DNA of 64,000 nt from Yuukianura sp. NJ FZ-2021. Taxonomy: Eukaryota. Shown here piece by piece: positions 9,101-49,470 of the stretch. Within the stretch, counting starts at the first letter, position 1. Every line of letters begins with the position of its first letter. The translations under genes were made by a program, and so were the position numbers. The notes under the pieces are model-generated. The model searched no databases. It was not told where the DNA came from and was given only the letters and a program-made list of their open reading frames with translations. Location of the stretch: the NCBI GenBank assembly GCA_046563655.1, contig CM102287.1, positions 8,370,001 to 8,434,000 of the forward strand, written 5' to 3'.

Positions 9101-10277
9101 CAACCTATCACTTGTTGCGAAAGAGCAAACTGGACGAACAGTTGACCCAAACCGGGACAATGACTTTCTTCGCCCCGAGCGAAACGGCTTGGAACAACCT
9201 GCGAGCAATCAGCGATGGAGCGTATCAGAACTTCTTCTACTCCGACGCACCGCAACCAACGTTACTCCATGTCCTGAAACGCCACTTCATTCTGAACCAT
9301 GTATATACCATTGAGGACTTGGCTGCCATGTCCGTTACCATGGGCAACAAAACAGTATCGAAGGGCATGAAGGGCAACTGGACAGTGTCACGGTATCCAA
9401 TTGCAACGATGGGACCCCGTGGCTATGTCAAAGTCAATGAAAGCAAAATCCTCTTACACAAGAAGGAACACCCACCGACTTCAAGTAAGTTCCCGGTTTT
9501 GTTCACAAACTACGTGCACAACAAACTATTCCCCCTTTCAAAATTTCTCCAAAAAGGAATGTGAAAAAATTTGACTATGTTGAAAGTTTCGAAATTCTTT
9601 TTTTTATAGAAAGCAATTACTACATTTTTTTGAAAATGTTTAGCTTACTAACTTTTCCATTTTCCTTTCCTTTTTGAAATCAACTTTTGAAGTTTACACG
9701 TACCTTGTCGCTATACTATTTCTCAGATACCCGCACCCCGGTAGAAGTGTTGTACGTAATTTGTGAACGGGTTTCTATTGATTTTCTATGAGAGCTTTCT
9801 CTCCAGAGCCCAAAATGGAGTCAATTTACTTTATTTTTAGTTTAGTATTTCCTAAGCACTTTCTCCATTTATTTTTGGCCTTTTCCAGCAACTTCTCCTG
9901 TTCCTATGTCCGCAAATGAGAAACAAAAGACGAGTCCAAGACAAACTGTTCCGGAAGAGTCACATTACTACATCTACTGGGATCGGACATGGGCACATGT
10001 CACTCGAACGAACGTCAGATGTACCAACGGTAAATTTACACAACTAACACAACCCAACACACTAAAATTTTATAACAAATGACATTTGAACTTAAACCAA
10101 ACAAAAAGCATTTGACCTTTGACCTCGTTTTACTTCTCGCTAGGAATAATCCACATCATTGATGACGTTTTGATGGACAATGAAGAAGTTACAGTTGCTG
10201 CCGCTCCCATAACTCTTTCTCCGCCGACTTTTCTGCTAGCACTTTTCTCCGCGGTGCTTTCTCTTCGTCTACTTTAA
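6120..10277 (+). CDS. Fas1: Fasciclin-1-like cell adhesion protein, paralog B (close tandem duplicate of A)
   Basis: Signal peptide MEYSKGRVYFNMLFGVILVSIFSSTNA. Same exon layout as A, with motifs GSLFVPKNEA, IVHIIDRVL, QTFFIPVDAAF, KNGVIHLINKPL, VTLFVPSNEA, ATNGYIHIIDRVL, TFFAPSETAW, TNGIIHIIDDVL. Hydrophobic end ...PTFLLALFSAVLSLRLL-TAA. Confidence 0.9.
9501..9770. repeat. Intronic inverted repeat (MITE-like remnant) in Fas1-B
   Basis: gttcacaaactacgtgcacaaca (9501-9523) is near reverse-complementary to tgttgtacgtaatttgtgaac (9748-9768). Confidence 0.6.
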
Positions 10278-22000: not shown

Positions 22001-25000
22001 AGGGGACTATAAGTTGATTAGACACAAAAATTATCGGGAAAAAAACCGAAACGCTACTCCTGGGGGAAATTAACCGAATTTCGCGTGACCTAGAAAGGCA
22101 AACTTTCTAAATACGATGCTGACACACCTTGTTTAGGTTTTTGAAAAAACCAAAAAAACAAAAAAATTGGAAAAATTTTTTTTTCTTTCAGTTCATGTCA
22201 CTGGTAGAATCCAGTCCGAGGTTTCGATCCGTCCTGGAATGGAAACAAGGAACAATTTTCGCTCCAACGAACTCTGCTCTGGATGAGTATCGGAGAACGA
22301 ATCCCTATGACCTTAACAATTTCACTCTCATGTATCATTACAGTAAGAAAGAATTTTCAAAATTCCATAAATTTTAAAAGATTTTGAAAAAAGAGTAAAC
22401 TTTGTGTTTTTTTTCCAGCAAATATACTAAAACCACGGGTGGAGCTAGAAGAAACTTCTTTGTCAACGGAACTACCAGGAAACTTAGCCGTTTGGATTAC
22501 AAAAAGTGACGCAGAGTACTTTGTCAACGGTGCAAAAATTCTGCAGTTCGACAAAAAAGTTCGCCTCGGGGCAAATGGATTGCAACAAATTGTTCATACG
22601 ATTAACAAAGTTCTGGAACCTACACTTCCGATTGCTGATGTTCTCAGTTCACCCTACAACAATCCTGATGCCAAGAAATATTTGGAATTTTCACAAGAAT
22701 ATGGAATTTCAAGGCCCTACAATACTTCGTAAGCGAAAGCCCGCCAAAAAATGCCGTCGTTTTGGAGTTTAAATTTAAAATGGCACTTTTCGTTTTTCTA
22801 GAATTTTTGCTAGACATGTTCAAAAATTGAATAGAATGGATTTCTTTGGAGATGCTGGAAAACACACGTTCTTTCTTCCAGTCAGCGAAGCATTTGCGGT
22901 AAGAAATTCCAAAATTGTTTATGAAAAAAAAATCGAGAATTGATTGCTAGTGTGATTTTTTGTGATTCTTTTGTGATTTGTGAATTGTGATTCACTTTTT
23001 TGTGATTTTTAGACTACCAGGGTTGAGAGCGTGGACAACAAGGCTATTGATGGTCACATGGTTGTGGGCAAAGCAATTTTCTTGGGCGCGAATTCCCAAA
23101 ATTCAAAACAGTTTTCGACGTTTGAAACTTCAGCAGCCGCTGGATACTTCCCAGTTGAAGTCACAATTGATTACTCAAAGTCAACAAATAGCTGTAAGCT
23201 TTAGTAAAAACAATTCAACAAAATTTTGGGTTGAAGTTGGTAGAGGCAGTCGGAAAACGCTTTGTACCCACCGTTTATAAGCCTTTACCTAACAACTTGT
23301 CACATCAATGTAAACTTTTAACCGTGGTAACAACTGGGTTGTTCTTGGTTTACGTCAATTTTAATTTTTCGTGTTTAAATCTTTCAGGGTCTGTAACGAG
23401 TGAAAATTTAATTGAGGATTTGAAATCCAAACATCGAAAAGGGAAAGTTCGTGCAGAAATTTTGAAGGCAAACATTCCAGTAAAGGTAAATTGAACCAAT
23501 TTTAACGTCTGGTTTAGCTTAGTCGAAATGCTAAGTGTTGTAAGATTGAGTGACCTTGACCTTTGACCTTTGAATTTGTATTTTCTGCATACAGAACGGT
23601 GTGGTTCATTTGATTAGTCGCCCCCTTGTGGTCATCGATTTGGACGTCTACAAGTTGATGCAGGTAAAGAATCACTTTTTAACTGTGTAACTTAAGCCTC
23701 ACATCTCACTGTTTATCGAATTGGACGTTTTCGAAATTTCGAAAAGAGGAAATTTCGAAATTTGGCATTGGCTGTAACGAGTGCTAATGCTGCATAAAAA
23801 ATGAAGGTCAAGCGCAGGCGCTAAAATTCGTTTTGAAAAAGTCTTGAAACTTTGTTTCTGTTGCATGTAGGGGGTGACCTTTTCAGGAGGGGAAAAGGTA
23901 GGCCTTATTTTCTGAAAAAAACATAAGGTCATGCTAACTTTGTACTAAAAAAATTGAAAAAGAATTCAAAATTTGATTCGAATTTAAAAGAAAATTGTGA
24001 AAGTTAACCCGCACGACCCTTCGCATGCGTTTTTCTTCCTTAGAAAGCTTTCACTCCAGGACTTCCGTAGGGGTTGACCTTTTGACCTTTAGAGCCCTCT
24101 GAACTTCACTAAAAACGAGTTTAGTATCGCTTGTGAATGGAATGAGGTTTTTATGCAGAAATTTATGAGGTCAAATGTCACAAAATTTTCATAAAATTTT
24201 GGTTTCAGGGCGATGGAGAGCACGGGCCGTTGCAGAAATTTTTTGCACTGGTTGACAGATTTCCGAGCGTTAAGCAAATTCTTATGGACACTCGAAAGGA
24301 CCATCGTGTCACCGTTTTTGCTCCCTCGTCTTCGGTATAACCTAACTTAAAGGTTCTTTGACAACCGAATCGTATTTCCTACAACAGGTTGTCCAATAAC
24401 TCAGGGTTTTAAAAAATCGTGCTTCAAACTTTCTGTACTAATTATTTACTGTATTATTCTATTTACCTTGTACCAATTCTACACCACAGCTTTTAGGTTT
24501 ATGCCTATAATTTTTTTCCCAACTATTTGACTTATTACAAAAATGACTATTTGACTGAAAAAAAGGCAAAATTGTCATAAAAACGGAGGTCAAGAAGAAC
24601 CGATTACATTTTGAAAAATTTTACACAAAGTTGAAAAAAGAAACGAGTTATTGGACAACCTATTGTAGAAAAAATATTTTTTTTTGTTTACGAACTTTGC
24701 TGTACAGGGTCATTGATTTAACGTTTTAGGTGCTGGAGGCGTCCAACAACTTTAAAGATCTACTGGAGACATCCAAGAAAAGTGGGACTGAGGGTGCAGA
24801 GGCATTGAAACAACTTGAAAAAATCGTAAAGCTCCACATTGTCAAACGTGACATAACCTCAGAAGATATCCTCAACGGTAGCAAAAATCTGGTAAGCTTT
24901 TTTAAAAATTGAAAAAAAGTTTAAACTCAGTTCAAAAAATTATGGACCGATCTTTGATGTTTTCTGTCTGATTGTGCAGACTCATCCGTTTAGTGTGCGA

Positions 25001-26153
25001 CCGTTGGATGAAAATAAACAACTGTCCTTTAGTGTTACCACTTCAAATACTGATGGTCGTGAGAAGTTGATTGTTATGGATGGAGGTGGGACGAGTGCCA
25101 CCATCAAGCAAGCCGACATTGGAGCCACCAACGGAGTCATTCACATCGTCAATCACGTTTTGGGACTTGGTGACAACACCATCTATGATCGTCTCCGAAG
25201 TGATCCGTTACTCAAGTAAACTAATCATAAACTTAACCTAAAATTTTGTAGAACTCGCTTAACCTTAATTTAAGTCCGTAAAATTTTGTCGACCAACCTT
25301 GCCCCAGCTTTCTCAAGCTTGTGTTGACCAAAATTTTACTTAACAGAATCTTTTGTTGACCAACTGAAAATGTAATGCTGACCCAAAAAACTTTTCAGGT
25401 TGACCTACAATCTCACTCTGCAGGAAAAATTCTACGAAGAATTTAAGAAAAAGGAAAAGAAGTACACGTTTTTTGCTCCGTATGACCCGGCCTGGGAAGG
25501 TTTACGGTACGCGTACCACTCGAAACATCGGATTCTGTTTGAAGGGCTCCACGGACGACATGCCAAGAATATCATGATGCGCCATTTGCTCGTAGGGCAA
25601 GACAAGTCGCTGGAAGACCTCTACGCACAGTCAGTCACTGGAAACAAAACGGTTGAAGTAAGGCCAATTTCTACGTTCAGCGATCAAATCCGAGTTGTGA
25701 AAGTGGATGACCCTAACTTCAAGACATACCTCCAGAAATATGGTATGACCTTTGACCTTTACGGTTGTCACTGTTTAAACACTTAAAATTTCCGATATTC
25801 TTAGGAACGGCGCATCCGCGGCTAAACACTACTCGATATCATGGCGAGTATCAATACGTCATTTTCTGGAGGAATCATGAAGTTCGTGTGGTCCAAGGAG
25901 ACATCAAGTGTACCAACGGTAAGCACTGCGCCTGCGCACTGCTCCTTTCGTAACATAACTAAACGTAACATTATGTTAAGTTTGTGTTAAACATATTTGA
26001 ACTCCTTTTTTTGCACTTTCAGGGTATCTTCACATCATCGACACAGCTATGATGACCAATGACGATGTCGTTGTCAATTCCGCTCGCGACATTCTGAACT
26101 CACCAGCATTTAACTTCCTTCTGATGATCCTGTTCTCACTACTGCTTCGTTGA
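13086..26153 (+). CDS. Fas1: Fasciclin-1-like cell adhesion protein, paralog C (long first intron; possibly the ancestral Fas1 ortholog)
   Basis: Exon 1 13086-13229 (MWSQGHPSSLTLLVTVLGLLVM...QNSDLSE|gt) splices in phase over ~8.96 kb to 22192 (FMSLVESSPRF..GTIFAPTNSAL). Later exons carry IVHTINKVL, HTFFLPVSEAF, HRKGKVRAEILKANIPVK|NGVVHLISRPLVVID, VTVFAPSSS, ADIGATNGVIHIVNHVL, YTFFAPYDPAW, TNGILHIIDTAM. Ends ...FNFLLMILFSLLLR-TGA. Confidence 0.9.
17386..17418. repeat. Degenerate (AACCT)n / TTAGG-like simple repeat
   Basis: ctaaccttaacctaacgtaacctaatctaacct. Similar runs occur near 4458-4508, 19245-19300, 21064-21120 and 34406-34481. Confidence 0.5.
23871..23897 (+). other. Candidate 27-nt alternative microexon of Fas1-C (GVTFSGGEK)
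   Basis: Preceded by the pyrimidine-rich acceptor ctttgtttctgttgcatgtag and followed by the donor AAG|gtaggc. It is 27 nt, phase 0-0 and stop-free, inside the phase-0 intron 23664-24208. Confidence 0.4.
24379..24668. mobile_element. ~290-bp MITE-like element with 24-bp terminal inverted repeats, in a Fas1-C intron
   Basis: Left ctacaacaggttgtccaataactc (24379-24402) versus the reverse complement of right gagttattggacaacctattgtag (24645-24668): 23 of 24 identical. The interior is AT-rich and non-coding. Confidence 0.7.
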
Positions 26154-27377
26154 AAATAATTTAGTAAACCCTAAAAAATTCTAAGAAAAATATTACTAAA
26201 ATGCTGGAAATATTCTCCAGAAATACTGGAAGTATTCTCCAGCACATAGTATGTTCCCATCAGCATCATCCCGTAACCAAAATCTATTTGAAATGAACTT
26301 TCCAGCAAATGCTGCCATAGCATGTGACCCCTAGCCTCCGTCAGTTGACCTTTGACACATACAACCCGTGTGCCTACTATACAAATACTTGCATTGTAGT
26401 CCGATCATTTAACTTTTAACGGTTATTCACAAATTAAGGCTTAGTTAATTTTAACGTTACTAAATAAAAGAAGTCAATTTAGAAAAAACTAGAAGAAAAG
26501 TTTAAGAGTAAAATTTAAAAAGTTTAAAACTTGAGTAAAAACTGAACATTGATATTGAGGTCACGTCGGTTGACCTGAGGTCAGCTAAAGCTTTAGTCAA
26601 GTAAAACAGTATGTTAGTTAGTAAAAGCCGATGTGGATTTGAGTTTAATTAAAGTGTAATGTAAAGTTTAAATAATTCAAAATTTACAGGTTATGCTTAA
26701 AACTTAAAAATTACGAATCTCAATTTGTTGTTTCTTCTGTTACCAAGAACTAAAATAACATTAACATTTGAGCCTAAAAATGTAGTTTTAGGTTTTAAAT
26801 TATTGAAATAAAAATTATTGCTTTATAAAACTCTAGCTAGGAACAACGTCCAAGAATTATTAGCCTAACGTTTTTAGACAGTCACAGTTTCGACATTAGT
26901 AGTAAAGAAAAGAATATTGCGGAAAGCATTGGGGGAAGTAAAGATATTCTCTCTTTGTAAATACTTTCAGCTAAATCACATAAAGCTAAAATCTTAAAAC
27001 AAATTTTCGAACAACAGCAATTTTAGGGTCGGGGATTTGTATTTTTAGAAAACATGCAATATAGCTATTTTCTGAGGAGTTTCAAGCACAGAATGTATAG
27101 TCGAAGGATAGCTAAATATATGAGGTATCCCAATCCAATTTTTCAAAAAATTTCCCCAGTTTCTAAAAATGGAAGCAAAATCTAAAGAGAGCGTCGGTTT
27201 TGGGGTAAAATTTAACGTCTTTTAGAGGCAAGCATTTTTCTGGCACAATTGTGTGAAAGGATACCGTGAATTGGAATTGTGGACAGAAAGAGAAGATCGG
27301 TGGTTTGAAGTAGTCCAAACACTTAAGTTAGCCAAAAACCATACAATTCTCTTAATTAGTTAAATATTAGTAGTAAA

Positions 27378-28181
27378 ATGAGTTTTATGGCAATCGGGCC
27401 TTGTAAGCTTCAACTTGACAATTTTTCAAATGAACCAAAGCAAGATGGGGCTGTTTTATTCTCGCGAAGAAGTGGAATGGTCTTCGTCTCGTTCTGGGGC
27501 CTTGGGGGTAACTTGATATGAACCAAAGATTTTGATTTTAACTAGAATAGAATATACAATTGAATTGTAAAAGTTCAAAGAATTACTGTCTAAAATTTGG
27601 ATGTATTGTGATAAACGTTTACTTAACCTTTTTTAGACTGGTACGACAGAGGTAAACTTTACGAAGTAGTTCTTACACGATCGGATTTGTCAAAAGTAAT
27701 AAATGATGTCGGAAGAAATCGGATTCTGGAGGTCGTGGAGGGCGGAAATGTAACCGTTCGGTTCATGTTCCAGGATCCGGGAAGTAAGTGACTTTTAAAA
27801 GAAATTGAAATTAAAATGAAATTAAAATTCTAATGTAGCTGTTCGTTTTTTAAAAATTCTTTTGTGATTCTAACTTTTCAACATTCGGCTCATTCTCACT
27901 CTAACATTCCACATTGAAATTTCCTCTGCCTCAGTCCACACCGAAATATGTGAAGTATTGGTCACTTGGATAAACTCGGGATATATGCCGCCGATAGTAA
28001 GCTTGGTTATTTTCTATTTTGTTTTGGAAATGTCGGCTGAATTTTTTTCGCGCATTACTTTAACGCGCGGAAAGTGTCGTTTTTAATTGGCAGAACGTTT
28101 ATTAAAGCGCGAAAATGTAAAATAATTTTGCTACCTATCTCCCTCCATAGTTTCCAGGTTTTTTTTGTTCTCGGGACGTAA
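27378..28181 (+). CDS. Small uncharacterised protein, copy 1 (~115-120 aa; possible PH-like/Pru fold)
   Basis: Exons 27378-27507, 27637-27783 (147 nt) and 27935-27996 (62 nt) join in frame through GT-AG introns: MSFMAIGPCKLQLDNFSNEPKQDGAVLFSRRSGMVFVSFWGLGDWYDRGKLYEVVLTRSDLSKVINDVGRNRILEVVEGGNVTVRFMFQDPGIHTEICEVLVTWINSGYMPPI. The last exon is uncertain (28094-28105 or 28158-28181). AATAAA at 28253. Confidence 0.75.
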
Positions 28182-28300
28182 GATGCATTTGACGGAACAG
28201 CAAAACTGAAATGTATTTTACAGACATCTACTTCAATTATTGTGAACTAATTAATAAAGTATTCAGAATTGGCCTCGACATACCAATTTATTTCAGTTCG

Positions 28301-28416
28301 GACAAATTTTATGACGGAAATTTTGAATTTTGTTTGAATCAATCCGCCTTTGGTTTCGTTACAGAGAGGTTAAGTTGTTCAATGTTCAGTGTATCAGGGA
28401 TGCGTCCACTAGTGTT
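28301..28416 (-). pseudogene. Duplicated fragment of the GPR158-like gene's last codons and 3'UTR
   Basis: Aligns by eye to 29917-30023 (e.g. aatcaatccgcctttggtttcgttacagagaggttaagtt vs gatcaatccacctttgatctcgctacagagaggtcaagtt; tcagggatgcgtccactagtgtt vs tcagggatgggtccactagtgtt). A 7-nt insertion breaks the frame. Confidence 0.8.
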
Positions 28417-28996
28417 CTTCCTTTGTACTACTACTTAATACTTTCAGTCAAATCCAACCAAGAATTTCGAAGGTTAAATTTTGTAGCCGAGGATTTTAGT
28501 ATTTTTGGAAAACGTGCAGTTTGACTAGTTTAAGGAGGTTTAAGGACAGCTCAATTCAGACAAGCGTCTTTCTAAGGCCTAACTACGGCAAGATGCTGTG
28601 AATTGCAATGCAACTATAAATAAATTAAGTTGTACTGGATATGGTACTCCTGCGGATCCCGTGTAACAGAAATCAACCCCCGACCTTGAGAATTTGCGTT
28701 TACGGTTTCCAGTTTCTTCCAGAAGTTGATGATAAATTGTTGGGTGGACAGAGGGGAAAAGATCGCTGGTTTGAGGCCGTTCCGTAACCCTGGAGAAACT
28801 GCAACAATCCCGATATCCTCCTGCCCCACCCAACAATAACAAGAAAACTGCTGCCATTTTGAGCCTGTCAGAGTTTACGGCGTGGTTACATCACTTGTGT
28901 TTTGAGTTCATCTTTAGCTGTTCGCGACTGTGATCATTTAATTGCTTATAAATCCAGCAAGTTCTCTACAAGATTTGTGATTTTGCCTTTTGAAAA

Positions 28997-29769
28997 ATGG
29001 GTTGTTTCGTAAGGTGCATGTTCGAAATTGAACCACTTGAGAAGTCTACCCCGGAAAAAGATGGATTTCTTACAATTCATGGAAATCAAGACATCATCCA
29101 AAACCGAAATTTTAGATGTGTCACAATGGTGCTGTTCGACACCATTGCCAACGAACTTGGGAGAGGTAAAACAGTCCATTTCATTAGGATATCCTCCTAG
29201 GATTGGTTTAAAAATTTTCATTTTTTCGTGAGATGTCGTACGTTTGTGAAAACTACTTCTAAAAACCTAACCAAACATAAAAACTTGAACTTAATTAACT
29301 TAATTTTTGCTTCTAGATATCGAACCACGGGTCAAAGTGAGTCGCTGCCTCTTTACTCCTGAGGACAACGCCAAAGTGGTTAAGCACCACATCGATCGTC
29401 GAATTCTTGAGGTTGTCAATAATGGAAAAACTGATTTCGCGATTGCGTTTCACGATCAACAAAGTGAGAACTACAACTTATAAAATATTTTTAGCATCGT
29501 GATTCGTGAATCGAATCTTAGTTTTGTTGTCCTCTTTTTTCCTTTTTTGTTGCATGTTTGTATGTACCTATGCGAACTTGGTTCAGGCTATGACGAAGTA
29601 CTGACGAAATTGAACGATTTAATCAGGTCGGGCCACATGCCCCCTTTGGTAAGTTTAGCTTTGATTTTGTTTTCAATCTCGCTAGAAAATTATTGAATCG
29701 CTTGGGGTTTTGTAAGTAGTAGGTTGAAAGTTTTTGTAATATTTGACAAACCTTGTGCAGGTGAACTGA
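28997..29769 (+). CDS. Small uncharacterised protein, copy 2 (~128 aa; paralog of the gene at 27378)
   Basis: Exons 28997-29165, 29317-29463 (147 nt), 29587-29648 (62 nt) and probably 29761-29769: MGCFVRCMFEIEPLEKSTPEKDGFLTIHG...ELGRDIEPRVKVSRCLFTPEDNAKVVKHHIDRRILEVVNNGKTDFAIAFHDQQSYDEVLTKLNDLIRSGHMPPLVN. Internal exon lengths and phases match copy 1. AATAAA at 29856. Confidence 0.78.
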
Positions 29770-29972
29770 ACGTCGGAGTTGGAACGTTGGCGTCTGCGTC
29801 ACCTCAAACGAAACAAGTCTAGTTCTCCAGAATTTATTGAGTTTGTGAAACTCAGAATAAAATTGTGTACGGCACAAAGAACTGTGGAAATATATCCGAA
29901 TTTATTTTTGTCTGTCGACATTTTATGGCGGAAATTGTTAATTTTGCTTGGATCAATCCACCTTTGATCTCG

Positions 29973-32900
29973 CTACAGAGAGGTCAAGTTGTCCAGTTTA
30001 TCAGGGATGGGTCCACTAGTGTTGGAAATGTGTCTGTTGTTTTTCGTCATGGCGTAGGACTTGAGTTTTTCCATTTGATATGCCATTTTCTGCAATTCTT
30101 CCTTCAACTGCTCATTTTCCTCTCCGAGGTCAAGGATGTCTCCACCAAAACCATTGGCGGAATTGGCGATTTCCTTCATTGTGGGATAGTCGCCACGGTA
30201 AGCTCTATAAACCTAAGAACGTAACCGCGGAATTTAGCAGTTAGAAAAAACTGAAGGAATTACATTTTGGGATATCTTTGAAAAGTATTTTGGAATTCAA
30301 GTATTTCCTCACTTTGCTTCCAAGAACAAGCGCAATCGTAATCGTCGTACTCAATTGAACTCTTACGAAAGCTAACAGGTACTTCATGTCAGGACCGGCT
30401 TTTGGCATTACTATCAAACTAGTTCAAAAAATAAACAAAATTAATACAATTTGCAATCTGAAACGGTTTCAAATTCTATTTTTTGAAGAACATTTCGTAC
30501 TGAAGCGTGACCATGATGACGTTGACTAGAGCGATATTGTAGATGGAGTAAGAAATGAACTGAGCGTCATGGTTCTCTCGAATTCGCCAACAAATGAAAA
30601 CTCCATAAGCCAAAAAAATGATTTCTCCAACCGACAGAACATGATCCCACCTACAGAGGTCAACAGAACAGAAATTTGACCTTTGACCTTTTAGCAATTC
30701 TCTGAAGTTATACCAGTTGTAGATGCACTGATGGAGTCTTTTTCCATCATGTGTTTTGAGAACTTCAAAGTTGATGGGAGCAGATATGGTCCATGCCATT
30801 AGGTACAGAAGCATAATCACCATGATCGGACTCATCCAATGAAGTAAGTGCTTTTCCGTAAGTTTGATTTTGTGAGCCGATTTGACCCGAAAGGTCAAAT
30901 ATACCCTGAAAATTCCAAAGCTCAACTTATATCGCGCAAAAACTTGGATTTGTAATGTCAGAGGTCAAACCTGCAGAGTTTCATGTATAGAGCGGTGTAT
31001 GTGATACAAAATCCAAGATGTCTTGTCCATTTTACGGCTATGCATATCTCACGACTCAGCGTCGGAAACAACACTACCATCTTTCAAAAACATTTTCAAA
31101 ATTGTGATTTTTCTTTTTGAAAAACGTGTTTATTTTTTAAAAATTGAGTTTTTCAATTGTTTACCTCCAGGTACATCACGAAGCATCCAAACAAACAAAT
31201 GCAGAGAAAAATTGGCGAAGATGCCGAAAATATTTGATGTTTGCGGTAGCTGTACACTCCAAAAATTAGGCCTAATGCAGCCATACTGCACAGTACCGAG
31301 ATACATAGTAGAGTCATTCTAAAAATTTGGTACAACATGTTCAAATTCTCAAAAATTTTGATCAAAAAAAAAATTTGTGTTTGAATTTTGAATGTTTACC
31401 TAAAAATATAATTGGCCTGTGCCATACAGGAGCTTCCATCTAAACAGTCTGGACATCCCTCTGGACACGCATGGCAAGAAGCGATTTTTTCAGAAATACT
31501 TTCTTCAGTTTCGTTTCTTCCAAATTTTTCAGCACATGATTTCGCTAAAACAAGTTATGTTATGTTAAACAAGTTAAGGTAGTTTACATTTATCACATAT
31601 AGTATATATTATATTTATATATTTATACTCATACTTTCCAAGTAGAATCCAGGAATAGTGTTGTTCCACTTTGTGTAGAAAGCATGATGTAAGCTCTTAC
31701 AAACACACTCATAGTTTCCCTTCAACCATCCGATTGGCTCCGCCTCTTTGTCCAGGAAGCGACACTTTGCAAATCAATTCACTCAAATTAACTAAATCTT
31801 AAGTTTCACATTTGATTTAACATTAATTTTAGGCTAGGTTAACTTTACCTTTGTTGTTTCCGGGTCACATTTGTGTGTTCCATGAAAATGTGACATTGGA
31901 CGATGCTTCTCTACTGCTGCTTTGTCTGTCGCTTCAGCTTCGCATTGGTTGATTTTGAACGGAGTCAGGTCAACGTCAAAACTCAGCAAACCGCTTGATC
32001 TGAAATTTTTAATTTATCGCTATTGATTTGAAAAATTTTGGTGAAGAATACATTTCTTTAAATCTAGTTCTGATTTATTACGTTTCTGTTCGAAATGCTG
32101 TTGTGTATGAAATAAGCCATTTTCTGGGTGAACCATGCCCAGAGTCATTGACTTCTGCGCACTTGAAGTACGGCCATGTCCAGAATCCAACTACGTTAGG
32201 ATTGAATAACCTTGTGGACTTGGGTTCAACGTTATGCACTGTATCGAACTTTTGCGTGTCGATGTTTCGCGGTTGTTTCAAAATGGCTTGAGGATTAAAA
32301 TACCACGGATTGGTCAATAATTGACGTTCGTTCTTCTCCACCGTCCGAAGTGTGAGAGGATTGTCCAGCGCTTTGTCGTAAACAGAAAATCTGGAAATGC
32401 CTGGAATTGGCCTGACGTAACGCAGTCCGTTTACGGTCGGTTCCTCACCGAGCAGCTCAAGTCCATTTTGAACTTCAAGTTGTGCAGCTATAAAGTATTT
32501 CAAATAAAGCTTAAAAGTTTGGTCACTTAGAAAAAAGTACTGATTCTAGCGACTTACTGTCTCTGGTGACCACTATTTTTGGAATGTAAGAAATGATGAG
32601 ATCTGCTTTCTCTTTGGGCAATTTGAAGTCAAAGATGGAAATGTTAATACCCGGAAAAACAATGTATTGTGGCTTTTCTGGACTGCAGATTCCCAGAGGA
32701 CCAGTCGACAGTTCTTGAATTGTATTCAAATAGTAGTGAACGAGATCCTCCTACAAATTGAAACAAATTAAAAGGCTAAGTTACATGGATTCACTTTGTT
32801 CAGAAATTAAAATAATTCAGGAATTCGTGGTTTAAAATTCACTTGTGCAAAAACTTTTCTTTCATCGGTTGGATCACATTATGAAGCAGTCACTTCTCGT

Positions 32901-39900: not shown

Positions 39901-42888
39901 TTGCACGGTGGTTGGGCTGGAAGCGGTCCCACGGTCCTTATGCTCCAACCTAATGATTATCAAGAACTAATGGACCTTTTAGAAGGCAAACCAATTACAA
40001 TTTCACAGAAACCTAGAAACCTGTTTTTCTGCACATGGACGCTCTAATTTGGGTTTACTGTTCAGAAAAGTGTGTGAAACTGTTCAAACAGACCTTCTCC
40101 GTATGACCTTTGATGAGGAAGTGATCCTCGCAGGGAGAAAGCAAACGCTTCACAACCCTCTACAATTCAAGTGAAAGCATTTTCGCGTGTTGCGGAGTCC
40201 CCAACCCAAGCGCGGTTGCGAAAAGCAGTTCTCTCTTTAGCATTCCCGGACGCTTTTGGACGCTGAAATCTGGACTAGCTCCTGGACAGAAGCTTAGGAA
40301 CCATAACGTTATGAACGTATAACATTAACCTAGTAAGTTTCTAAACTTAAACTATCCATGTCGTTGGGAAGTTTCCGTCCAAGAGCGTTCATTGTTCGTT
40401 TCTAAGGACGCTTCAGCGGAGAGTCGCGATCCTTTTGATGTACCCCTTTCAACCGAATCAACAAATTTCGCAAAACAATTTTCTGGAGGAACGCAATTTC
40501 CGAACATCTAAAATGAATCTTTCAATCACCTAAAAGTGTTTACCAGGAGATAAATTCATTGGAACTTTGTTAAGATACGTAGTAGCAGCATTGGTCTCTA
40601 TGTTAGCACGAAACAGCAATTTTCAAAGCCTTTTGATCTGACGTGATTTGACATAAAGACAACTTTCTAAAGAGTCTTTTGATCCAAACCCGAGAAAATT
40701 CAGTTTTAGAGAAAAGCATTCGTTAAAGTTCACAATGGTTCTGATTTCAAACCAGAATCGGATATTAGACATAAGTTTTTGTACAGAAAGAAAGCAAACG
40801 GAAATTTCCCACGATCCAATTAAGTTATTAAGTTACGTAAGTAAAAATAGTCATGATGTTACATATGTAATCTGTAAATTACAGGCTGTAATCTATGGCG
40901 GGAAATCCTCATGGAACACTTTCCAGAAAGAAAGATTACTTTTTATGAGGTTAATTTACTTTTTGAAAAATGAAAAATAGGGGATATGAACACTAAAATT
41001 GGATTTAAGAAAGTAGGTTGTGAAGAAAAAGTGATAGATTTGACATGATTCAATTTGACTATAAACGTTCGGTAATACAAAAGAGAAAATCATTCATTTC
41101 CCCTCTTTTCGAAAATTTTCCAGAATTCGGGAAGATCTATCTTTTGGTTTTTTGAAAACGTAATAAAAATTGACAACTTAGTCATAGTCAGCCACAAAGT
41201 GACTTTTATTTCATTATTCTTCTCAAACGTACATTTTTTTTTCTTAAAGTGAAAGTATAAGAAGTTTCAATTTTTCAAAAAGCATGGATTGTATGCTCTA
41301 ATTTAATTTTTTGAAGATGAATGCTTCCATTTTAGTTTTGAGACGCTTTGTCAAACCATTACTTTCACGAACTTATTAACTCTTCTCTATCCTCTACCCC
41401 TTGGGGTGTGAAACATGATTCCAAAAATACTTTTTTTTTGGAAACGTTATTAAAAATATTGCAGGGTTGTCAGGAATTGGACCAGTTAATTTAATTTTGG
41501 AAAAAGTGAACATGGCATTAAAAACTGTCTGCTTTCACTTTCCAAAATTTGAAACCATTTCTGTAATAAGAGGTAGGAAACGAAGCGAACATCAATTTAC
41601 TGAAACGAGGTTAGAGAGTTTGGAAATTGCGAGATGATCCGAAATTAAGCTGGACTTAACCCAGTCTTTGTAACCTGCAAAGTTATGAATTTTAAAATAT
41701 TTTTTAAATTGAAATTTCGACGGAAAGTAGAAAGCTCTGATTTTTGTGCAAGAACTATCCGTATTATTATGCGAAGCAAAAAGGTTCCACATTTTCCCCT
41801 TCACTTGCTTCCCGATCCCGATCCCGCCCAAAAGGTAAAATATTCATAGCCATAAGCAATATTTGGAAGCGTCACTTCGATTTGGCGCGAATGAGAAAAA
41901 CAATTTGAATTTGTTGTTTGCTCTATTTTCGTCTGTTCATTTTTGAATTTTGATTTTTTTTGCGTCTCTTTTATCTTGGAAATCGGAGATTGCGAAACCA
42001 AAGTGCGAGTCTCTGATTCATTCATTCGTTCTCGGATTTAGTCGACAGAAAAACGTTTCGTCCAAACCTCCAAATTGTGACGTTGGTATGATACGTTTGT
42101 TACATATTAAGTGGTTAAGTCGACTAAATTAAGCCCAGTTACTAGTAAATTACATTTGTTCACAGGCTAGGTACTAATTGACGATTGGCAAGAGGGACTT
42201 CCTGGTAGTCCATTTCCTGATACGGAAACCGGTAAGGTGCTTTTCAAAACCGATGACCGTCTTGTTTGTAATGAAGAATTGATGTTGTACTGAGAATAAT
42301 GGATGCTGCAGCTGATCTTTGATTTCGAGGTGAGTGAACTTTTTGCCAGAAGTGTTACATAAATGGCTTCTATCAATTTCAATTCGCTTTATAGTTCTGC
42401 GGAATGCTTATAAGTAGTTCTTGTTGCCGGGTTAACGAACACCTATGTAGCATTTATTAAAAATGACATTCTTCTTTACTTGTTTAGGTGCTGCATGTGC
42501 ATGCGTACAAGCGTACTGCTTGCTTTACGATTAAATTTCATTTGTGGGGTTACATTTTTGTGAAACAATCATGCCTCTTGTGGGGGTCGGGCCGGAAGAC
42601 TCCGGGCTTGATTGAAACAATTATGTAACACCACAAGAACGAATTACTCGTATACTGCATTGCTGATTGTCACATCATTTCAGTGGAAGTCACTTAGCAG
42701 TCGAGCACCTCGAAATCGAAGTCTAGTTACGAAGTTACCGAATTTTAAGGTAAATTTTAAGGCATTGTAAACGTTCAAAGTATAAATGAGATATTCTTTG
42801 CATAAACCAATACAGAAGAGACAATCCTTATTCTAATCTACTATTGAAGTCTAATGAAAATGCCTATGGTTTGTTGATTTCAGTTTCA

Positions 42889-45206
42889 ATGTCTTCTGCT
42901 TCTTCACACAGTGATCAACGAGGAATCGCAGGCAGTTCAGGTTATGAAGGTGGTGGGGACAAAAAACGACTGAAACTGGAACCCCAACATTTCGACGTCG
43001 ACGACGACAGTGGTCTCGACGATTATGATGATATTGCTGAACCGGACGATGGTGAAGACGGCGCCGGCGGAGACGATGTATATAACGACGATGTGTATAG
43101 TGCGGTCTGCAAAGATCAGCGTTCTCTTTCTGAACGATGCTTCGGACCACCGTTCCAGTATTGGGTTCTAAATGCTCGAGAAACCTATCATCAGATGGTT
43201 TCCTGCATTACTGAAGTAAGTTTATTTTGAATAGTAGAAAGCAATTGCAACCTTGTGACGCTAATAATAATTTCACGTTCTTTGCCAGTGCCAAAAGATT
43301 CTAGCACACTCACCAACAACTGTTCGGCTCCTGCTGAATCATCGAAGCTGGGACATTGGAAAACTCTATGACGACTATTACGGTTCTGACATGATAGCTA
43401 TCTTCAGTTCTGCTGGAATTCCAGACCCTTCAATTACTACGCCGGACGTTAATAAGCTGCCAGCCCCGTCAGACTGTGACATTTGTTTTGCCTCTCTCCG
43501 TCCAGGGGTAAGTTACGCATTCTGCAGATACTTGTCGAGGAGAGACACTTTTATTTTTCAGTTGCTAACTCAAAGAGATAAACAATTAAACAGCAATAGA
43601 TTAAATTCGATTTTTTCTTTATTTACAGAATTTTTGTACAGCAAAGTGCGGTCACTCATTCTGTAATGATTGCTGGAGAAGTTACCTCCTATCAAAAGTA
43701 ATGAATAGCGCAGGGCAAGAGAAGATTGAATGTCCAGCCCAATCATGCAAATGCTTTCTGGAAGATGAGTTTGTAATCGAGAACCTCGCCACTGTTCATG
43801 CTCAAGAAGTTTACAAAAAACAAATTACTGAGAGCTACGTCCAGGTTTGTATTACCTAATTATCAACATTTGGATCAATAGTTATTTATAGCCTAACATG
43901 TTTTGTTTAGTCTAATCGACGAATGTGCTGGTGCCCGGGAGCGAATTGTTCCGGACATGTGATCGAGCTTGAACAAGGATCGTCTAATTGGTGTCCAGTT
44001 ACCTGCTCTTGTTCTCATTTCTTTTGCTTTCACTGCCGAGAACAATGGCATGGACCTGTTACTTGCAAGTACCTCAAAAAATGGAACAAAAAGTGTGCTG
44101 ACGACTCAGAAACTGTGAATTGGATTTCAGTTAATACGAAGGTGAGTTGAATTTTGATTAGAGTTGTAGTTTCTAGTATGCTCCGCATTCTACAAATTCA
44201 CGGAATTGTTTTCAGAGATGTCCAAAGTGCGAAGCGCCAATTGAGAAAAATGGAGGATGTAATCACATGCAGTGCTCAAACACTGCTTGTCGTCATCATT
44301 TTTGCTGGATTTGCTTGGGAGACTGGAATTCTCACAATCGAGACAAGTAAGAAACTAAAGTACTTGCCATATAAAATGGTGCTAACAAGACAGAAATGCT
44401 AACTACCATCGTTCTTTCAATTTTCTTTTAAGTAGTTATAACTGCAACCGATTTCCAGAAAACCACGAGGAAATCACTTCCGCAAATGCTGCCCGGGAAA
44501 ACTCGTTGAAGCGCTACTTGTTCTACTTTGATCGATATTACAATCATCACAAAAGTCTCGTATGTTATACTTGTAATCAGCTTTTGTATGTCCACATTTT
44601 GTTAATCGTGAATACTTTTAATTAATAACTTAGAAATCGGAGAATACACTTGTTGAGAAGATTGAGGCCAAGATCGCAGAGTATACGTCGCTTGGTGTGG
44701 CCAGTTCTCATGATCTCTATTTCATGAACAAAGTGAGCATCAACATTTTGGTTCGCAATTCTAATTACAGATAATGTTTTCAATCGCTGTTTACAGGCAG
44801 TTCAAGTTCTGTGCCAATGTCGGCAGACGCTTATGTACACGTATGTCTTTGCGTATTACCTGTCTCGAAACAACAACGCCACAATTTTTGAAGACAACCA
44901 AAGTGATCTCCAGAGAGCCACTGAGGAATTATCTGAGCATCTTGAACGTGACCTTGTATACGAGAAAGAAGCTTTGGAAACCTTGAAAAAAATCGTAAGT
45001 GTATTAGAACTTTGCATAAAAATGAAACTTTTCAAAACCGCTTTTCGAAAAGCAGTTTTTTTTTTAAGTTTCGGAATTTGGATTTTCAGGTCATGCACAA
45101 GACTAACTACTGCGAGAGTCGTTGCGCAGTTCTACTCAAACACGTTTACGAAGGTTACGATGAAGGTTACTGGACTTACATTGATTCTCAAACTGGTACT
45201 GGATGA
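42889..45206 (+). CDS. ari-1: Ariadne-family RBR E3 ubiquitin ligase (ARIH1/ari-1-like)
   Basis: Acidic N-terminus and UBA-like [14 protein letters not shown]1 CDIC...[10 protein letters not shown]...[18 protein letters not shown]...[25 protein letters not shown]2 [19 protein letters not shown]...FCWICL with the catalytic Cys intact. Ariadne domain [14 protein letters not shown]...[15 protein letters not shown]...[18 protein letters not shown]. Confidence 0.93.
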
Positions 45207-46302
45207 TGGACATCAAGTTTGATGTTTTCGCAATACAAGGACAAGGACACGGAGGGTAACACAGGATGACGAAGTGCAAGTATTTATTCCTCCACATTTT
45301 TTGCATTTAAAAACTTCATTTTTACTATTTCTAAATTACTATTTTCGTGATTCGCCAAGCGGATTAGAACATAAAATTTTGCTTTTCAAATATGAATTTT
45401 CATTGAAAATCCTTTGCTTATTAAAAGTTCAACGAAAGAACTTGCTTAGCTTTCACTTGCTTCCTGTCTCTATTGACACTTTCCATAAAATTTTGATGAG
45501 GAAAGAGGGAGAGGGTGGATATCTTTGTTTTGCATTTGCTTTCCTGGTTGAGAGACTTTTAGAAAGGTGGGGTGAAATAAAAGTTTTTTCACCTGTCCGC
45601 TTTACACAAAAGTTTCCCAAGCAAATATGCATGCCAAAGCAATAACCAAGAATTGGACGGTTGGTGGGGACGTTGGCACTTGGCATCGTCAGTTGAAGAG
45701 TAAAGTGGACTTGTATTGTTAAGGCTTTTAGATTGATGATTAAGTCCAACTGTCCCTGTCCAACTAGAGTCTTCCGGTCATGCAGGGTATATCTTTCGGT
45801 TAGGACTAAAAAATCAAGCAAAAGGCGAATGCTTGAGTCAGTCCTTATAAACTACGACAGGCCTTGCGGGCAGTTTCTACTTTACTGAGCAACACACGCA
45901 ACAAAAAGCATATTTTTTTTAACCCGTTCTTGTTTTTGTATTAGTATTTCACAGGTACTATGTTATGTACAACATTTGAAAGACTCATCTTTTGAGGTCT
46001 TGAGGGCTCTTGGATTCTTCACTTTCCATTTTTTTTTCACTACTTACGTGCAATTAGTCAGCAAAGTTGATTGAAAATTCTTGAATTGTGACTGTTACAG
46101 TGAAGATATTCAGATTTGATGATTTCATTTTTATTATCGATTCAGTTTGTTTCTTGATTTCAAGTTGTTGCGTGATTTGGCGCGATAGGGGGAAGCCTAA
46201 TTTTATGTGCTAAAAGGTTGAGCAGCATTTGTGTCTTAACTTGACCGAGTGACATTGCGGCGACAGTTTTGCAGGCACCGAAGGAATTTATAGGTTGAAA
46301 AG

Positions 46303-49300
46303 ATGACGCTGCTTTTGATCTTGCTATTTTTCTTGTCAACTACAAATGGGCTTGCTTATGAGCACCAAGGAATTGGGGCACGCTACGCTCTGACGATAGA
46401 CGAATTCTTGCAGCAGAACCCCGAAGTGGATCGCGTAAGTTTAGGAAAATTCAATTGCTGTTCAAAGATTTTCAAGATTTCAAATTGTTTTACGAAAACA
46501 TATCTTCGTTGGTCGAATCTGTATTGTTTTGGACGTTTTTTTAATTTTAGCTTTTTCCTTTTCAGTTTATGAACTTGATCCGGTATCACTCTTACTTCAA
46601 CAATACTCTGCATTGGAAATCGGGGACGCTGTTTGTACCAAATAATACTGCGGTGGAAGAGTACTTGAAGTTTCATGATGACAGAATTGATGACAATACG
46701 CTCATTTACCATTTTAGTAAGTTTTGAAACTAATCTTTTTTTTTCGTAAATTTTGATTTCGAAAAGTTTTCTGTGTAATAATTTTGTTCTGTTTCTTAGC
46801 AAATATCCAGACAACGAGCCACGAAATGGACGAATTCATCTCATCTGACCTGCCAAGAAATCCGCCAATTTGGGTGACGACGAGGAATTCGGATCTGTTT
46901 CTAAATGATGCTCAAGTGATCAAGAGAGATCTCAGAATTCGGATTGGATCTGACCATGTTGTTCATACGCTTGATCGTGTCCTGATTCCGACTGTTCCAA
47001 ATTCAGCTTCCGGTGGATCCGACATGAATAATCCGGATGCCAAGAAGTTCCTAAGCGCCTCCAGTGCCTACAACACAACCGGTGGATTCCAGATTTCGTA
47101 AGTTTTTCAATTTCAAAATCTTTGGAATTTATTTTGGAGGTATAAGTTTTATTTTACGTTTTAAAGCTTATATTTTGATTGGTTGCAGCGATTTTGTGAC
47201 GCGAGTGGCAGCACTGAAGCGATTGGAGTTGTACCATAACGTAGGGAAGCACACGTTTTTCATTCCTATCAACAGTGTTAGCCAGGTAAAAGTGAAAAGC
47301 ATTTTTTTTTTTGCAATTTTTTCTCCAAAGGTTTCAGAATTCTTGTTTATAGATTTCGTTTTAAAAATATTTTTGCAGCGAGCCAATATTCACAACATCG
47401 ACAACAAAGTGATCGAAGGTCACATCATTCCCGGTCAAATTTTGTTCCTGCCATCAGCGCCTTTAAATGAGCCATTTCAAACTCTGACTTACGTGTCCAA
47501 CGATCCAGCCTTCGCTTTCCAAAACTTTCCTATTTACATTTCCATTGAAAATCTGAATCGGACGGATGTGGAAACATGTAAGTTGTGACTCATAACATAA
47601 ATTATTTGGTCGAGTGAGTTGATTCAGGCTATTTTTGTATTCCAAAAGAATTAATGTACCATAATTATTGCGAATGACAATTGCAATTCTATTGTAATTT
47701 TTCAGGGAATATCATCAGTGACAACCGAATAGACGATTTGACGTCCGGGACGAGGTACCGGAAAGGCAAAGTTCATTCTGAAGTTGTGCGTGGAAATATT
47801 CCAGTGAGGAATGGTGTGATTCATCTCATCAAGCGTCCACTTGTAATTATTGACACTACGATTTATGAAGTTCTTCAGGTATTCCAATGAAGTTATTACT
47901 CATTTATTGTAAAATCAATCCGCAAGAGAAAGGCTTTATTTTTGATACTTTTAGGCTCATGGGAATGAAGATGGAGGACAAATGCACGAATTTTTCCGAA
48001 TTATTAACGACTTTGGACGTCATACTGGAATTCATGAGCTTCTTCAGCGGCGAGATAATCGAAAGCTGACGCTGTTCGTACCTACAAATGAAGTAATTAA
48101 AAATGTTGATAGTTATTCACAGAAATGGTTTTGTGTTAAACTTTAGATATGTTTTCTTTTAGGCTTTGGCGAGATCCAGAAGTTTCGTAAATATTTTGAC
48201 GAATCGGACAGCTTTAACGGAAATTTTGAGACTGCATGTCGTTGAAGAAGAACTCACAAGCGATTTCATTTTCAACAGAAGCTTGCAAACGGTAATGATG
48301 AAGAACATCTACCTTCGTTTTATTTTCAAATTTTAACTGTCGATCGTAGGAAAACTTTCGAACGGCGTTTTTGAATATAAAATTTTTGTTTCAAAAATGG
48401 GGTGTAATGTTATGTGTCTTCTTTTTCTAGAACGCACCTCTCGAAATATTCACAACGAGACCCAACTGGAAGCTTTACTTCACGATTGCCCGAGATGGGA
48501 ATAAGAGAGTTATCCAGGTCGAAGGGGGTGGGACAAGTGGCGCCATTTTGACCACCGTTGACATCGGAGCCACGAATGGTAAGTGTTACTTTTCTTCCAT
48601 TTCACTTAAAGGAGCGTTCACTTTATAAATGTCTTTTTATAGGTGTTGTCCACATGATTAACCGTGTCCTCGGCGTCGAAGATCAAACAATGTACGAGAA
48701 GCTTCAGACGGAGTACATGCTGGAGTAAGAGTCCAATACTTGCAAATATACTGTTCTGGAACCTTCTAGTTTTTGAAACATTCTTATTCTAACTGCTGCT
48801 TGTTATTTTTAGATCAACGTTTCGCCTGTCTACTCAGAATTTCTACAATGAAAGGTTCAAGGATGAAACGAAACGCTATACCTTCTTCGCTCCAAGCAAC
48901 GCAGCCTGGGATAAATTCGGACTAAAGTATCCTAATGATCAATCCAAATTATTCCAAGGCGGACACAGTTCTGGAAACATTTTGGATCGGCATCTAATCA
49001 TTGGACAAGACATGACTATTGAAGATCTCAAGAATTTCTCATCTTCTTACGGCGGAAGTTTTGGAATAAGAAACACTATTCCTACGTATTCTGACCACAT
49101 CCGTGTAGCTTCTATCCAGGATCCGGATTGGGTACAGGTCAAAGAATCCTATGGACAAGGCGGCAGTTACAGCCAAAGTTCTGCATCGACTTATGGATCA
49201 AGGCAACAACCTTCCGGACGTGTCTACGGAGACTACAAATATGTCATCTTTTGGCGTGGTTATGAATGTTACGTTGTACGACCCAATATCAAGACGACAA

Positions 49301-49470
49301 ATGGGATTATTCATATAATCGACTATCCACTGATAGTTCCAAGCGACGTTGTCGCCAAAGGGAGTCATTTAGTTCCTATCCGGTGGACCATCCTAACAAC
49401 TTCATTCCTATCAATATCTTTACTCCTCGCAGAAACAGGCTCTCTCATGCCTGCTACGCTAAAACTTTAA
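46303..49470 (+). CDS. Fas1: Fasciclin-1-like cell adhesion protein, paralog D
   Basis: Signal peptide MTLLLILLFFLSTTNG. Motifs GTLFVPNNTA, VVHTLDRVL, HTFFIPIN, GNIPVRNGVIHLIKRPLVIIDTT, LTLFVPTNE, DIGATNGVVHMINRVL, YTFFAPSNAAW, TTNGIIHIIDYPL. Hydrophobic tail WTILTTSFLSISLLL. AATAAA at 49716. Confidence 0.9.

Follow-up and report, generated by a model that had tools for sequence, protein, structure and literature searches.

Does an interval crossed by no long open reading frame carry genes and, if so, of what kind? The question is raised by positions 27378–29769 of a 64,000-nucleotide stretch of DNA from Yuukianura sp. NJ FZ-2021 (assembly GCA_046563655.1, contig CM102287.1, positions 8,370,001 to 8,434,000 of the forward strand), the whole of which we refer to as the window. 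In a preliminary description, this interval was proposed to hold a tandem pair of small, rapidly diverged spliced genes, possibly encoding the Pru domain of the proteasomal ubiquitin receptor Rpn13/ADRM1 or another PH-like fold. Our analysis indicates that the two genes, here called A and B, are probably real protein-coding genes and old tandem paralogues, the product of each most likely being one compact binding domain. The gene structures, the pattern of substitutions between the copies and the duplicated flanking DNA all bear on this reading, and we consider them in turn before addressing the fold.

Gene A occupies positions 27378–28250 and gene B positions 28997–29769, both on the forward strand. 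When the exons were joined by their coordinates, each gene was found to consist of four exons, encoding 121 and 128 amino acids respectively. In gene A, exon 1 (27378–27507, 130 nt) begins with the ATG at 27378 and is followed by the donor gtaac. Exon 2 (27637–27783, 147 nt) carries the RILEVV core and is entered in phase 1, as is exon 3 (27935–27996, 62 nt), which ends in SGYMPP-Ile. Exon 4 (28224–28250, 27 nt) is entered in phase 0 and closes with Val-Asn-stop, the same ending as in gene B. The corresponding exons of gene B are exon 1 (28997–29165, 169 nt, with the ATG at 28997), exon 2 (29317–29463, 147 nt, phase 1), which carries both LFTPED and RILEVV, exon 3 (29587–29648, 62 nt, phase 1), which ends in SGHMPP-Leu, and a last exon of only 9 nt (29761–29769) that specifies nothing but Val-Asn-stop. 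All six introns are of the GT..AG type with pyrimidine-rich acceptors; they start with gtaac, gtaag and gtaag in gene A and with gtaaa, gtgag and gtaag in gene B. The intron phases (1,1,0) are common to the two genes, as are the lengths of the internal exons (147 and 62 nt), while the intron lengths differ (129/151, 151/123 and 227/112 nt for A/B).

Assembly of the exons therefore bears out the proposed pair of spliced genes with matching internal exons and phases, and the interval runs exactly from the ATG of gene A to the final base of the stop codon of gene B. The motifs on which the proposal drew are likewise present in the translations: RILEVV occurs in both proteins, FQD in one is matched by FHD in the other, SGYMPP by SGHMPP, and TPEKDGFLTI and LFTPED are found in B. 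None of the 38 stop-to-stop open reading frames of at least 110 amino acids overlaps 27378–29769, in agreement with the remark that the genes had been missed by a track of such frames. The two ATG codons lie 1619 bp apart. An in-frame TAA is located 18 nt upstream of the gene A ATG and an in-frame TGA at the same distance before that of gene B; since no AG lies between this TGA and the ATG of gene B, that ATG marks the start of the reading frame.

Comparison of the two proteins revealed significant similarity over the part encoded by the internal exons. A blastp alignment of residues 48–115 of A with residues 61–128 of B was ungapped, with 23 of 68 residues identical and an expectation value (E) of 6e-10 for the pairwise search space. 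Setting exons 2 and 3 in the register dictated by the exon boundaries gave 24 identical residues out of 72, again without gaps. Scored with BLOSUM62 in this fixed register, the two proteins reached 90 over 70 positions, compared with −72 ± 18 for shuffled sequences (z = 9), and not one of 20000 shuffles attained the observed score. The first exons showed no significant local similarity to each other, 423 of 2000 shuffles scoring as well, but both close with Leu-Gly(-Arg) and then an Asp codon, the same in each, that is split by the intron. Profiles of exons 2 and 3 matched only A and B among 2793 open frames, so that a search for further copies, made within the 64-kb window, yielded no third member. 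Genes A and B share orientation, exon–intron structure and protein similarity, and they are accompanied by colinear duplicated flanks, described below; these are the features by which paralogues are recognised.

The pattern of differences between the copies provides information on whether the proposed frames are translated. Identities at the first, second and third codon positions numbered 32, 41 and 23 of 70, the difference between the second and third positions being significant (Fisher's exact test, p = 0.0038). The proportion of synonymous differences (pS) was 0.80 and that of nonsynonymous differences (pN) 0.47; the difference of 0.33 had a bootstrap range of 0.12–0.54 and fell to zero or below in 0.16% of resamples. 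Among 23 degenerate codons for identical residues, the third base was common to 9, and the remaining 14 differ in synonymous spelling. Even the RILEVV hexapeptide is encoded with synonymous differences in four of its six codons. Exons 2 and 3 are free of insertions and deletions while the lengths of the introns have changed, and the introns of A and B showed no similarity to each other (z-scores of 0.3, −1.2 and 1.7). Codon usage favoured the proposed frame in both genes, with scores of 10.7 against −28.4 and −15.2 in A and 18.9 against −11.1 and −19.4 in B. Because the second codon position is kept over the third, pN is below pS and the frame is free of insertions and deletions, we conclude that A and B show the behaviour of coding genes on which purifying selection acts. 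Introns and synonymous sites have become random between the copies. Under selection, by contrast, the frame has been maintained, exons 2 and 3 are unchanged in length and the introns have held their phases. Some 24 residues form a conserved core, among them the hydrophobic RILEVV, SG-x-MPP close to the C-terminus and the Val-Asn with which both proteins end.

Several observations weigh against the reading that we favour. Codon usage amounted to only 0.09 (A) and 0.15 (B) bits per codon; the training exons scored 0.23 and random open frames 0.06 ± 0.10, and exon 3 of gene A ranked at the 1.6th percentile of the latter. When exon 2 was scored for recognition by a language model, the values (2281 for B and 1840 for A) stayed below 2300, a mark reached by 91 of 100 proteins of known families. 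No homologue of either gene was found in the databases searched, with queries of 48–56 residues. Both the compact fold and the binding function are inferences, the models of fragments having reached a mean predicted local distance difference test score (pLDDT) of no more than 53 and 44, and a hydrophobic-moment profile, which is a crude measure, gave no clear helical signal in the C-terminal segment of A.

These observations might be taken to mean that A and B are nonfunctional, their open frames being a by-product of how splice sites were picked within duplicated DNA that codes for nothing, or that one or both are decaying pseudogenes. The modest codon usage, poor for gene A exon 3, the low recognition of exon 2 and the lack of detected homologues would all suit such an origin, as would the abundance of open frames of 40–70 codons, of which this AT-rich window contains 562 over all six frames. 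However, neutral DNA as diverged as this would not be expected to hold two frames open. At a stop-triplet frequency of 0.054 121 or 128 codons would run without a stop with a probability of about 0.001, a figure that is too favourable to our reading, the splice sites having been selected so that no stop interrupts the frame. Nor would neutral DNA hold exon lengths equal while the introns change length, favour codon position 2 over position 3, or retain a hexapeptide through four synonymous changes. We therefore give very little credence to a nonfunctional origin and retain the view that both genes encode proteins.

To place the genes in their surroundings we compared the DNA on either side of them. 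Upstream of gene A, the segments 27019–27091 and 27279–27308 (forward strand) are 73% and 84% identical to 28477–28549 and 28744–28774 upstream of gene B. Downstream of gene A, positions 28285–28416 on the reverse strand constitute a relic of the end of a G-protein-coupled receptor (GPCR) gene, comprising its final 16 codons and 3' untranslated region (UTR). The relic is 79% identical over 132 bp to 29899–30023 (reverse strand), with a 7-bp insertion or deletion and no open frame beyond; the latter segment is the functional original, namely the end of the coding sequence and the 3' UTR of a CG31760-like GPCR gene. The relic marks the right end of the first unit at about 28416, and the second unit, whose upstream island 28477–28549 is the partner of 27019–27091, starts by 28477, some 40–60 bp further on. 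The three flank matches are colinear and the two units adjoin, which points to a head-to-tail duplication of about 1.5 kb. The duplicated unit took in about 390 bp of DNA upstream, the gene with its four exons and about 170 bp downstream; in this last part the end of the convergent class-C GPCR gene, with its 3' UTR, was copied as well. The conserved 3' flank gave no sign of structured RNA in either copy when compared with shuffled sequences (z-scores of 0.39, −0.36, 0.84 and −0.92), and Rfam returned a single match, which lay below threshold (15.9 bits, the gathering score being 30) and is put down to chance.

The age of this duplication requires closer consideration. The synonymous sites are saturated, to the extent that the Jukes–Cantor distance is undefined at the observed pS, and the nonsynonymous distance (dN) is about 0.77. 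This saturation implies that the pair is old, and it also means that the rate of divergence and the ratio of dN to the synonymous distance (dN/dS) are not computable. The description of the genes as rapidly diverged is consequently not supported, given a pS of 0.80 and only 9 of 23 third bases in common. On the sequence evidence, an old duplication with a conserved core fits the data. The flanks, at 79% identity over 132 bp, are far better kept than the introns or the synonymous sites, which counts against our reading in that it is ill-suited to a simple old duplication. Conversely, they might date the event. The duplication would then be recent, and exons and introns alike would have outpaced neutral DNA, as might happen when an arms race imposes positive selection. 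What remains of the receptor's 3' end lies exactly at the end of the first unit and should date from the duplication, the upstream islands are 73–84% identical, and pN is high at 0.47, all of which would be accommodated by recent and very fast change. Positive selection on a protein, however, leaves introns and synonymous positions unrandomised, and here all three introns are unalignable and the third base is seldom shared even in the codons of conserved residues. Moreover, the excess of pS over pN across the aligned core speaks for purifying rather than diversifying selection. Conserved non-coding elements or patches of gene conversion could account for the flank islands instead, and on balance a recent duplication appears quite improbable. 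An old duplication, with the islands perhaps preserved for one of these reasons, is the reading that we carry forward.

What kind of protein might the two genes encode? Both products are slightly acidic, with ratios of Lys + Arg to Asp + Glu of 11/13 for A and 16/19 for B. Their maximum hydropathy over 19 residues is only 0.99 and 0.69, respectively, and for this reason neither contains a transmembrane segment; both products are soluble. Most likely each protein folds into one compact domain, rich in beta structure and with a helix at its C-terminal end, and acts as a non-catalytic binding module. In such a domain RILEVV would be a buried core strand and SG-x-MPP a conserved cap past the helix, and the two proteins would owe different partners to the divergent stretches between their strands. 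The crude hydrophobic-moment profile had a period suggestive of strands in exon 2 and of a helix at residues 107–121 of B. As a separate observation, protein B starts with Met-Gly-Cys (28997–29020, forward strand) and protein A lacks such a start. We take a Met-Gly-Cys start to resemble that of proteins subject to dual acylation (myristoyl plus palmitoyl), and the Arg at position 6 of B is presumably unfavourable for N-myristoyltransferase.

The leading candidate for the fold, and only a candidate, is a PH-like beta-sandwich, possibly of the Pru type. In the PH superfold two antiparallel sheets stand orthogonal to each other, and a C-terminal helix closes them. The preliminary description had gone further in this direction, and according to it A and B could be divergent stand-alone Pru domains of the Rpn13/ADRM1 type, serving as small ubiquitin or proteasome adaptors or decoys and binding ubiquitin through the loops of a seven-stranded beta-sandwich. 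The segments quoted in its favour are truly present and in the stated order. Several hydrophobic and acidic segments would moreover be colinear with the human domain in order and spacing, among them an aromatic-Pro-acidic turn in B and a Gln-Asp-Pro turn in A. According to PMC11546751, the Pru domain is a seven-stranded beta-sandwich with a C-terminal helix as its cap, and the size of A and B and their layout of strands followed by one terminal helix would fit this description. There is a precedent for a Pru-only protein, in that yeast Rpn13 consists of the Pru domain alone (PMC11546751).

To evaluate this proposal, fold and family searches were run on single exon-encoded pieces, each amounting to half a domain or less, and they accordingly have little power. 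Pfam returned no family at E ≤ 10 for any of six exon pieces of 20–56 amino acids, which are short queries; the family name for the Pru domain, which we take to be Proteasom_Rpn13, was returned by no search. Sequence searches of the PDB with four single exons and two two-sequence profiles gave 1, 14, 17, 1, 3 and 4 sequences at E ≤ 10, and in none of the six was there a chain of Rpn13/ADRM1. The top PDB matches were designed 'Pizza' propellers, which we rejected, as their scores were inflated by summed repeats; the hits as a whole were attributable to chance or to such inflation. AlphaFold modelling of gene B exon 2, with A supplied as the alignment, produced three consecutive strands in this fragment at low confidence (mean pLDDT 53.2), and the fragment encoded by gene B exon 1 reached a mean pLDDT of 44.4. 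When the exon 2 model was submitted to Foldseek, 96 matches were obtained at E ≤ 10 and none at E ≤ 0.001; they included one PH domain, at rank 37 with an E of 7.2, among unrelated folds. In the ESM Atlas, the look-alike of gene B exon 2 was a proline dehydrogenase (0.87), which lies under the lead threshold of 0.9 and was set aside, and gene A exon 2 gave no usable match.

The two proteins were also compared with residues of known function in Rpn13, subject to an alignment that is unverified. Ubiquitin is contacted by L56, F76, D79 and F98 (PMC11546751). Under this alignment B would keep only the F..D pair, in the LFTPED turn, and A only the D. The surface that docks to Rpn2 comprises W108, Q110, P112, M31, T37, T39 and P40 (PMC5494190). 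Under the same unverified alignment the Rpn2-contacting Trp108 would be absent from both proteins and A would keep the Gln-Asp-Pro turn. The three strands of the exon 2 model would suit a Pru domain; against it stand the empty Pfam searches, the absence of Rpn13/ADRM1 chains up to E = 10, the lone PH domain far down the Foldseek ranking, the unrelated look-alike of B in the ESM Atlas together with the lack of one for A, and the loss, under that alignment, of most contact residues. None of the single-exon results supports the Pru idea or has the power to refute it. Taken together, we regard it as rather unlikely that A and B are divergent Pru domains. A more specific form of the idea is a long shot: the genes would encode single-domain Pru-type ubiquitin readers or decoys of the springtail lineage, detached from the proteasome, retaining the ubiquitin-binding beta-sandwich of Rpn13 and devoid of both the DEUBAD domain and the Rpn2-docking tryptophan, with B perhaps tethered to membranes through its Met-Gly-Cys start. 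We thus return to the broader reading of A and B as compact binding domains encoded by an old pair of paralogues.

Since the genes have no detected relatives, we considered how far the homologue searches reach. Gene B exon 1 gave four candidates when compared with longer proteins, none of them at E ≤ 0.01, and a profile of A and B exon 2 gave 77 candidates among longer proteins, none at E ≤ 1. Gene B exon 2, searched against 1.84 billion representative sequences, produced three matches at E ≤ 0.001; these were rejected as tandem-repeat proteins whose scores were summed over 8, 2 and 5 stretches. The lack of a homologue is weak evidence, because the queries comprised only 48–56 residues and because the nearest relatives represented are only 64% identical in the core of the neighbouring receptor. 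That A and B look like orphans may be due only to the shortness of the exon queries and to the lack of close genomes in the databases. A literature search for an Rpn13-like, Pru-like or ADRM1-like paralogue family found none among the papers listed, as judged from titles and the openings of abstracts.

Other features surround the two genes. An AATAAA polyadenylation signal is found at 28253–28258, 3 nt past the stop codon of gene A, and another at 29856–29861, 87 nt past that of gene B. The sequence TATAAA at 28947–28952, 45–50 nt before the gene B ATG, is a possible TATA box on the strength of its match to the consensus; all three lie on the forward strand. The class-C GPCR gene that left the relic downstream of gene A occupies 29976–32326 on the reverse strand. 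It is orthologous to Drosophila CG31760 and convergent with gene B, their stop codons lying about 200 bp apart. Its exon at 30476–30964 (reverse strand) matched the Pfam family 7tm_3 with an E of 4e-13. The last exon (29976–30212, with the stop codon at 29973–29975, reverse strand) aligns to the extreme C-termini of springtail orthologues. In a homologue search with a GPCR exon, 32 proteins among 96 candidates were found at E ≤ 0.001, without a match of 100%, which means that the organism's own proteins are not represented in the database. The best relatives came from the springtails Allacma fusca and Orchesella dallaii (64% identity), followed by Drosophila CG31760 (about 43%). By these relatives the window comes from a collembolan-like hexapod, although its splice sites and G+C content might suggest a nematode.

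The window as a whole has a G+C content of 36%. The preliminary description had also pointed to an RBR E3 gene 13 kb from the pair, and an ARIH1/Ariadne-type gene does lie at 42790–45222 (forward strand). Single exons of this gene matched UBA_ARI1 (E 1e-5) and Ariadne (E 0.006), both just under the curated cut-offs of Pfam. Other genes sit between the pair and the RBR gene and no link to A or B was found; its proximity would appear to be coincidence. Paralogous fasciclin (FAS1) genes are spread across the window on the forward strand, at 1888–4370, 9046–9564, 22388–25786 and 46757–49470. The two exons tested matched the Pfam family Fasciclin with E values of 1.3e-13 and 1.2e-5, and similar exon translations occur in the list of open reading frames. 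On the reverse strand there are two very long open exons, at 52798–55545 (915 amino acids) and 58176–59237 (353 amino acids). They are rich in Ser, Pro, Asn and Gln, gave no match in Pfam and are probably disordered regions of large proteins.

Overall, the analysis adds two probably genuine small genes that a scan based on open reading frames misses. It also illustrates cleanly that a pair of genes can be certified from conserved exon lengths and intron phases and from the pattern of change across codon positions, without a homologue or a transcript. Should the fold prove to be of the Pru type, A and B would be free-standing relatives of the proteasomal ubiquitin receptor in an animal lineage. 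They would then raise the testable question of whether ubiquitin is read away from the proteasome; at present this is only a lead.

Two known systems invite comparison. With the Pru domain of Rpn13/ADRM1 the proteins share a size of about 110–130 residues. They would share with it also, if the layout predicted for them is correct, the beta-rich body followed by one C-terminal helix that is described for Pru in PMC11546751. They differ from Rpn13/ADRM1 in lacking a DEUBAD domain, and their exon-encoded pieces gave no sequence, profile or fold match to it, so that membership in this family is not established. The second system is that of the lineage-restricted, or 'orphan', tandem duplicates of arthropods. 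Like these, A and B are small, composed of several exons, arranged head to tail with duplicated flanks and devoid of a detectable homologue outside their lineage. The pair belongs to a known kind, that of small lineage-restricted tandem duplicates, from which it differs in that its members are old and keep a core under purifying selection, rather than being young and decaying.

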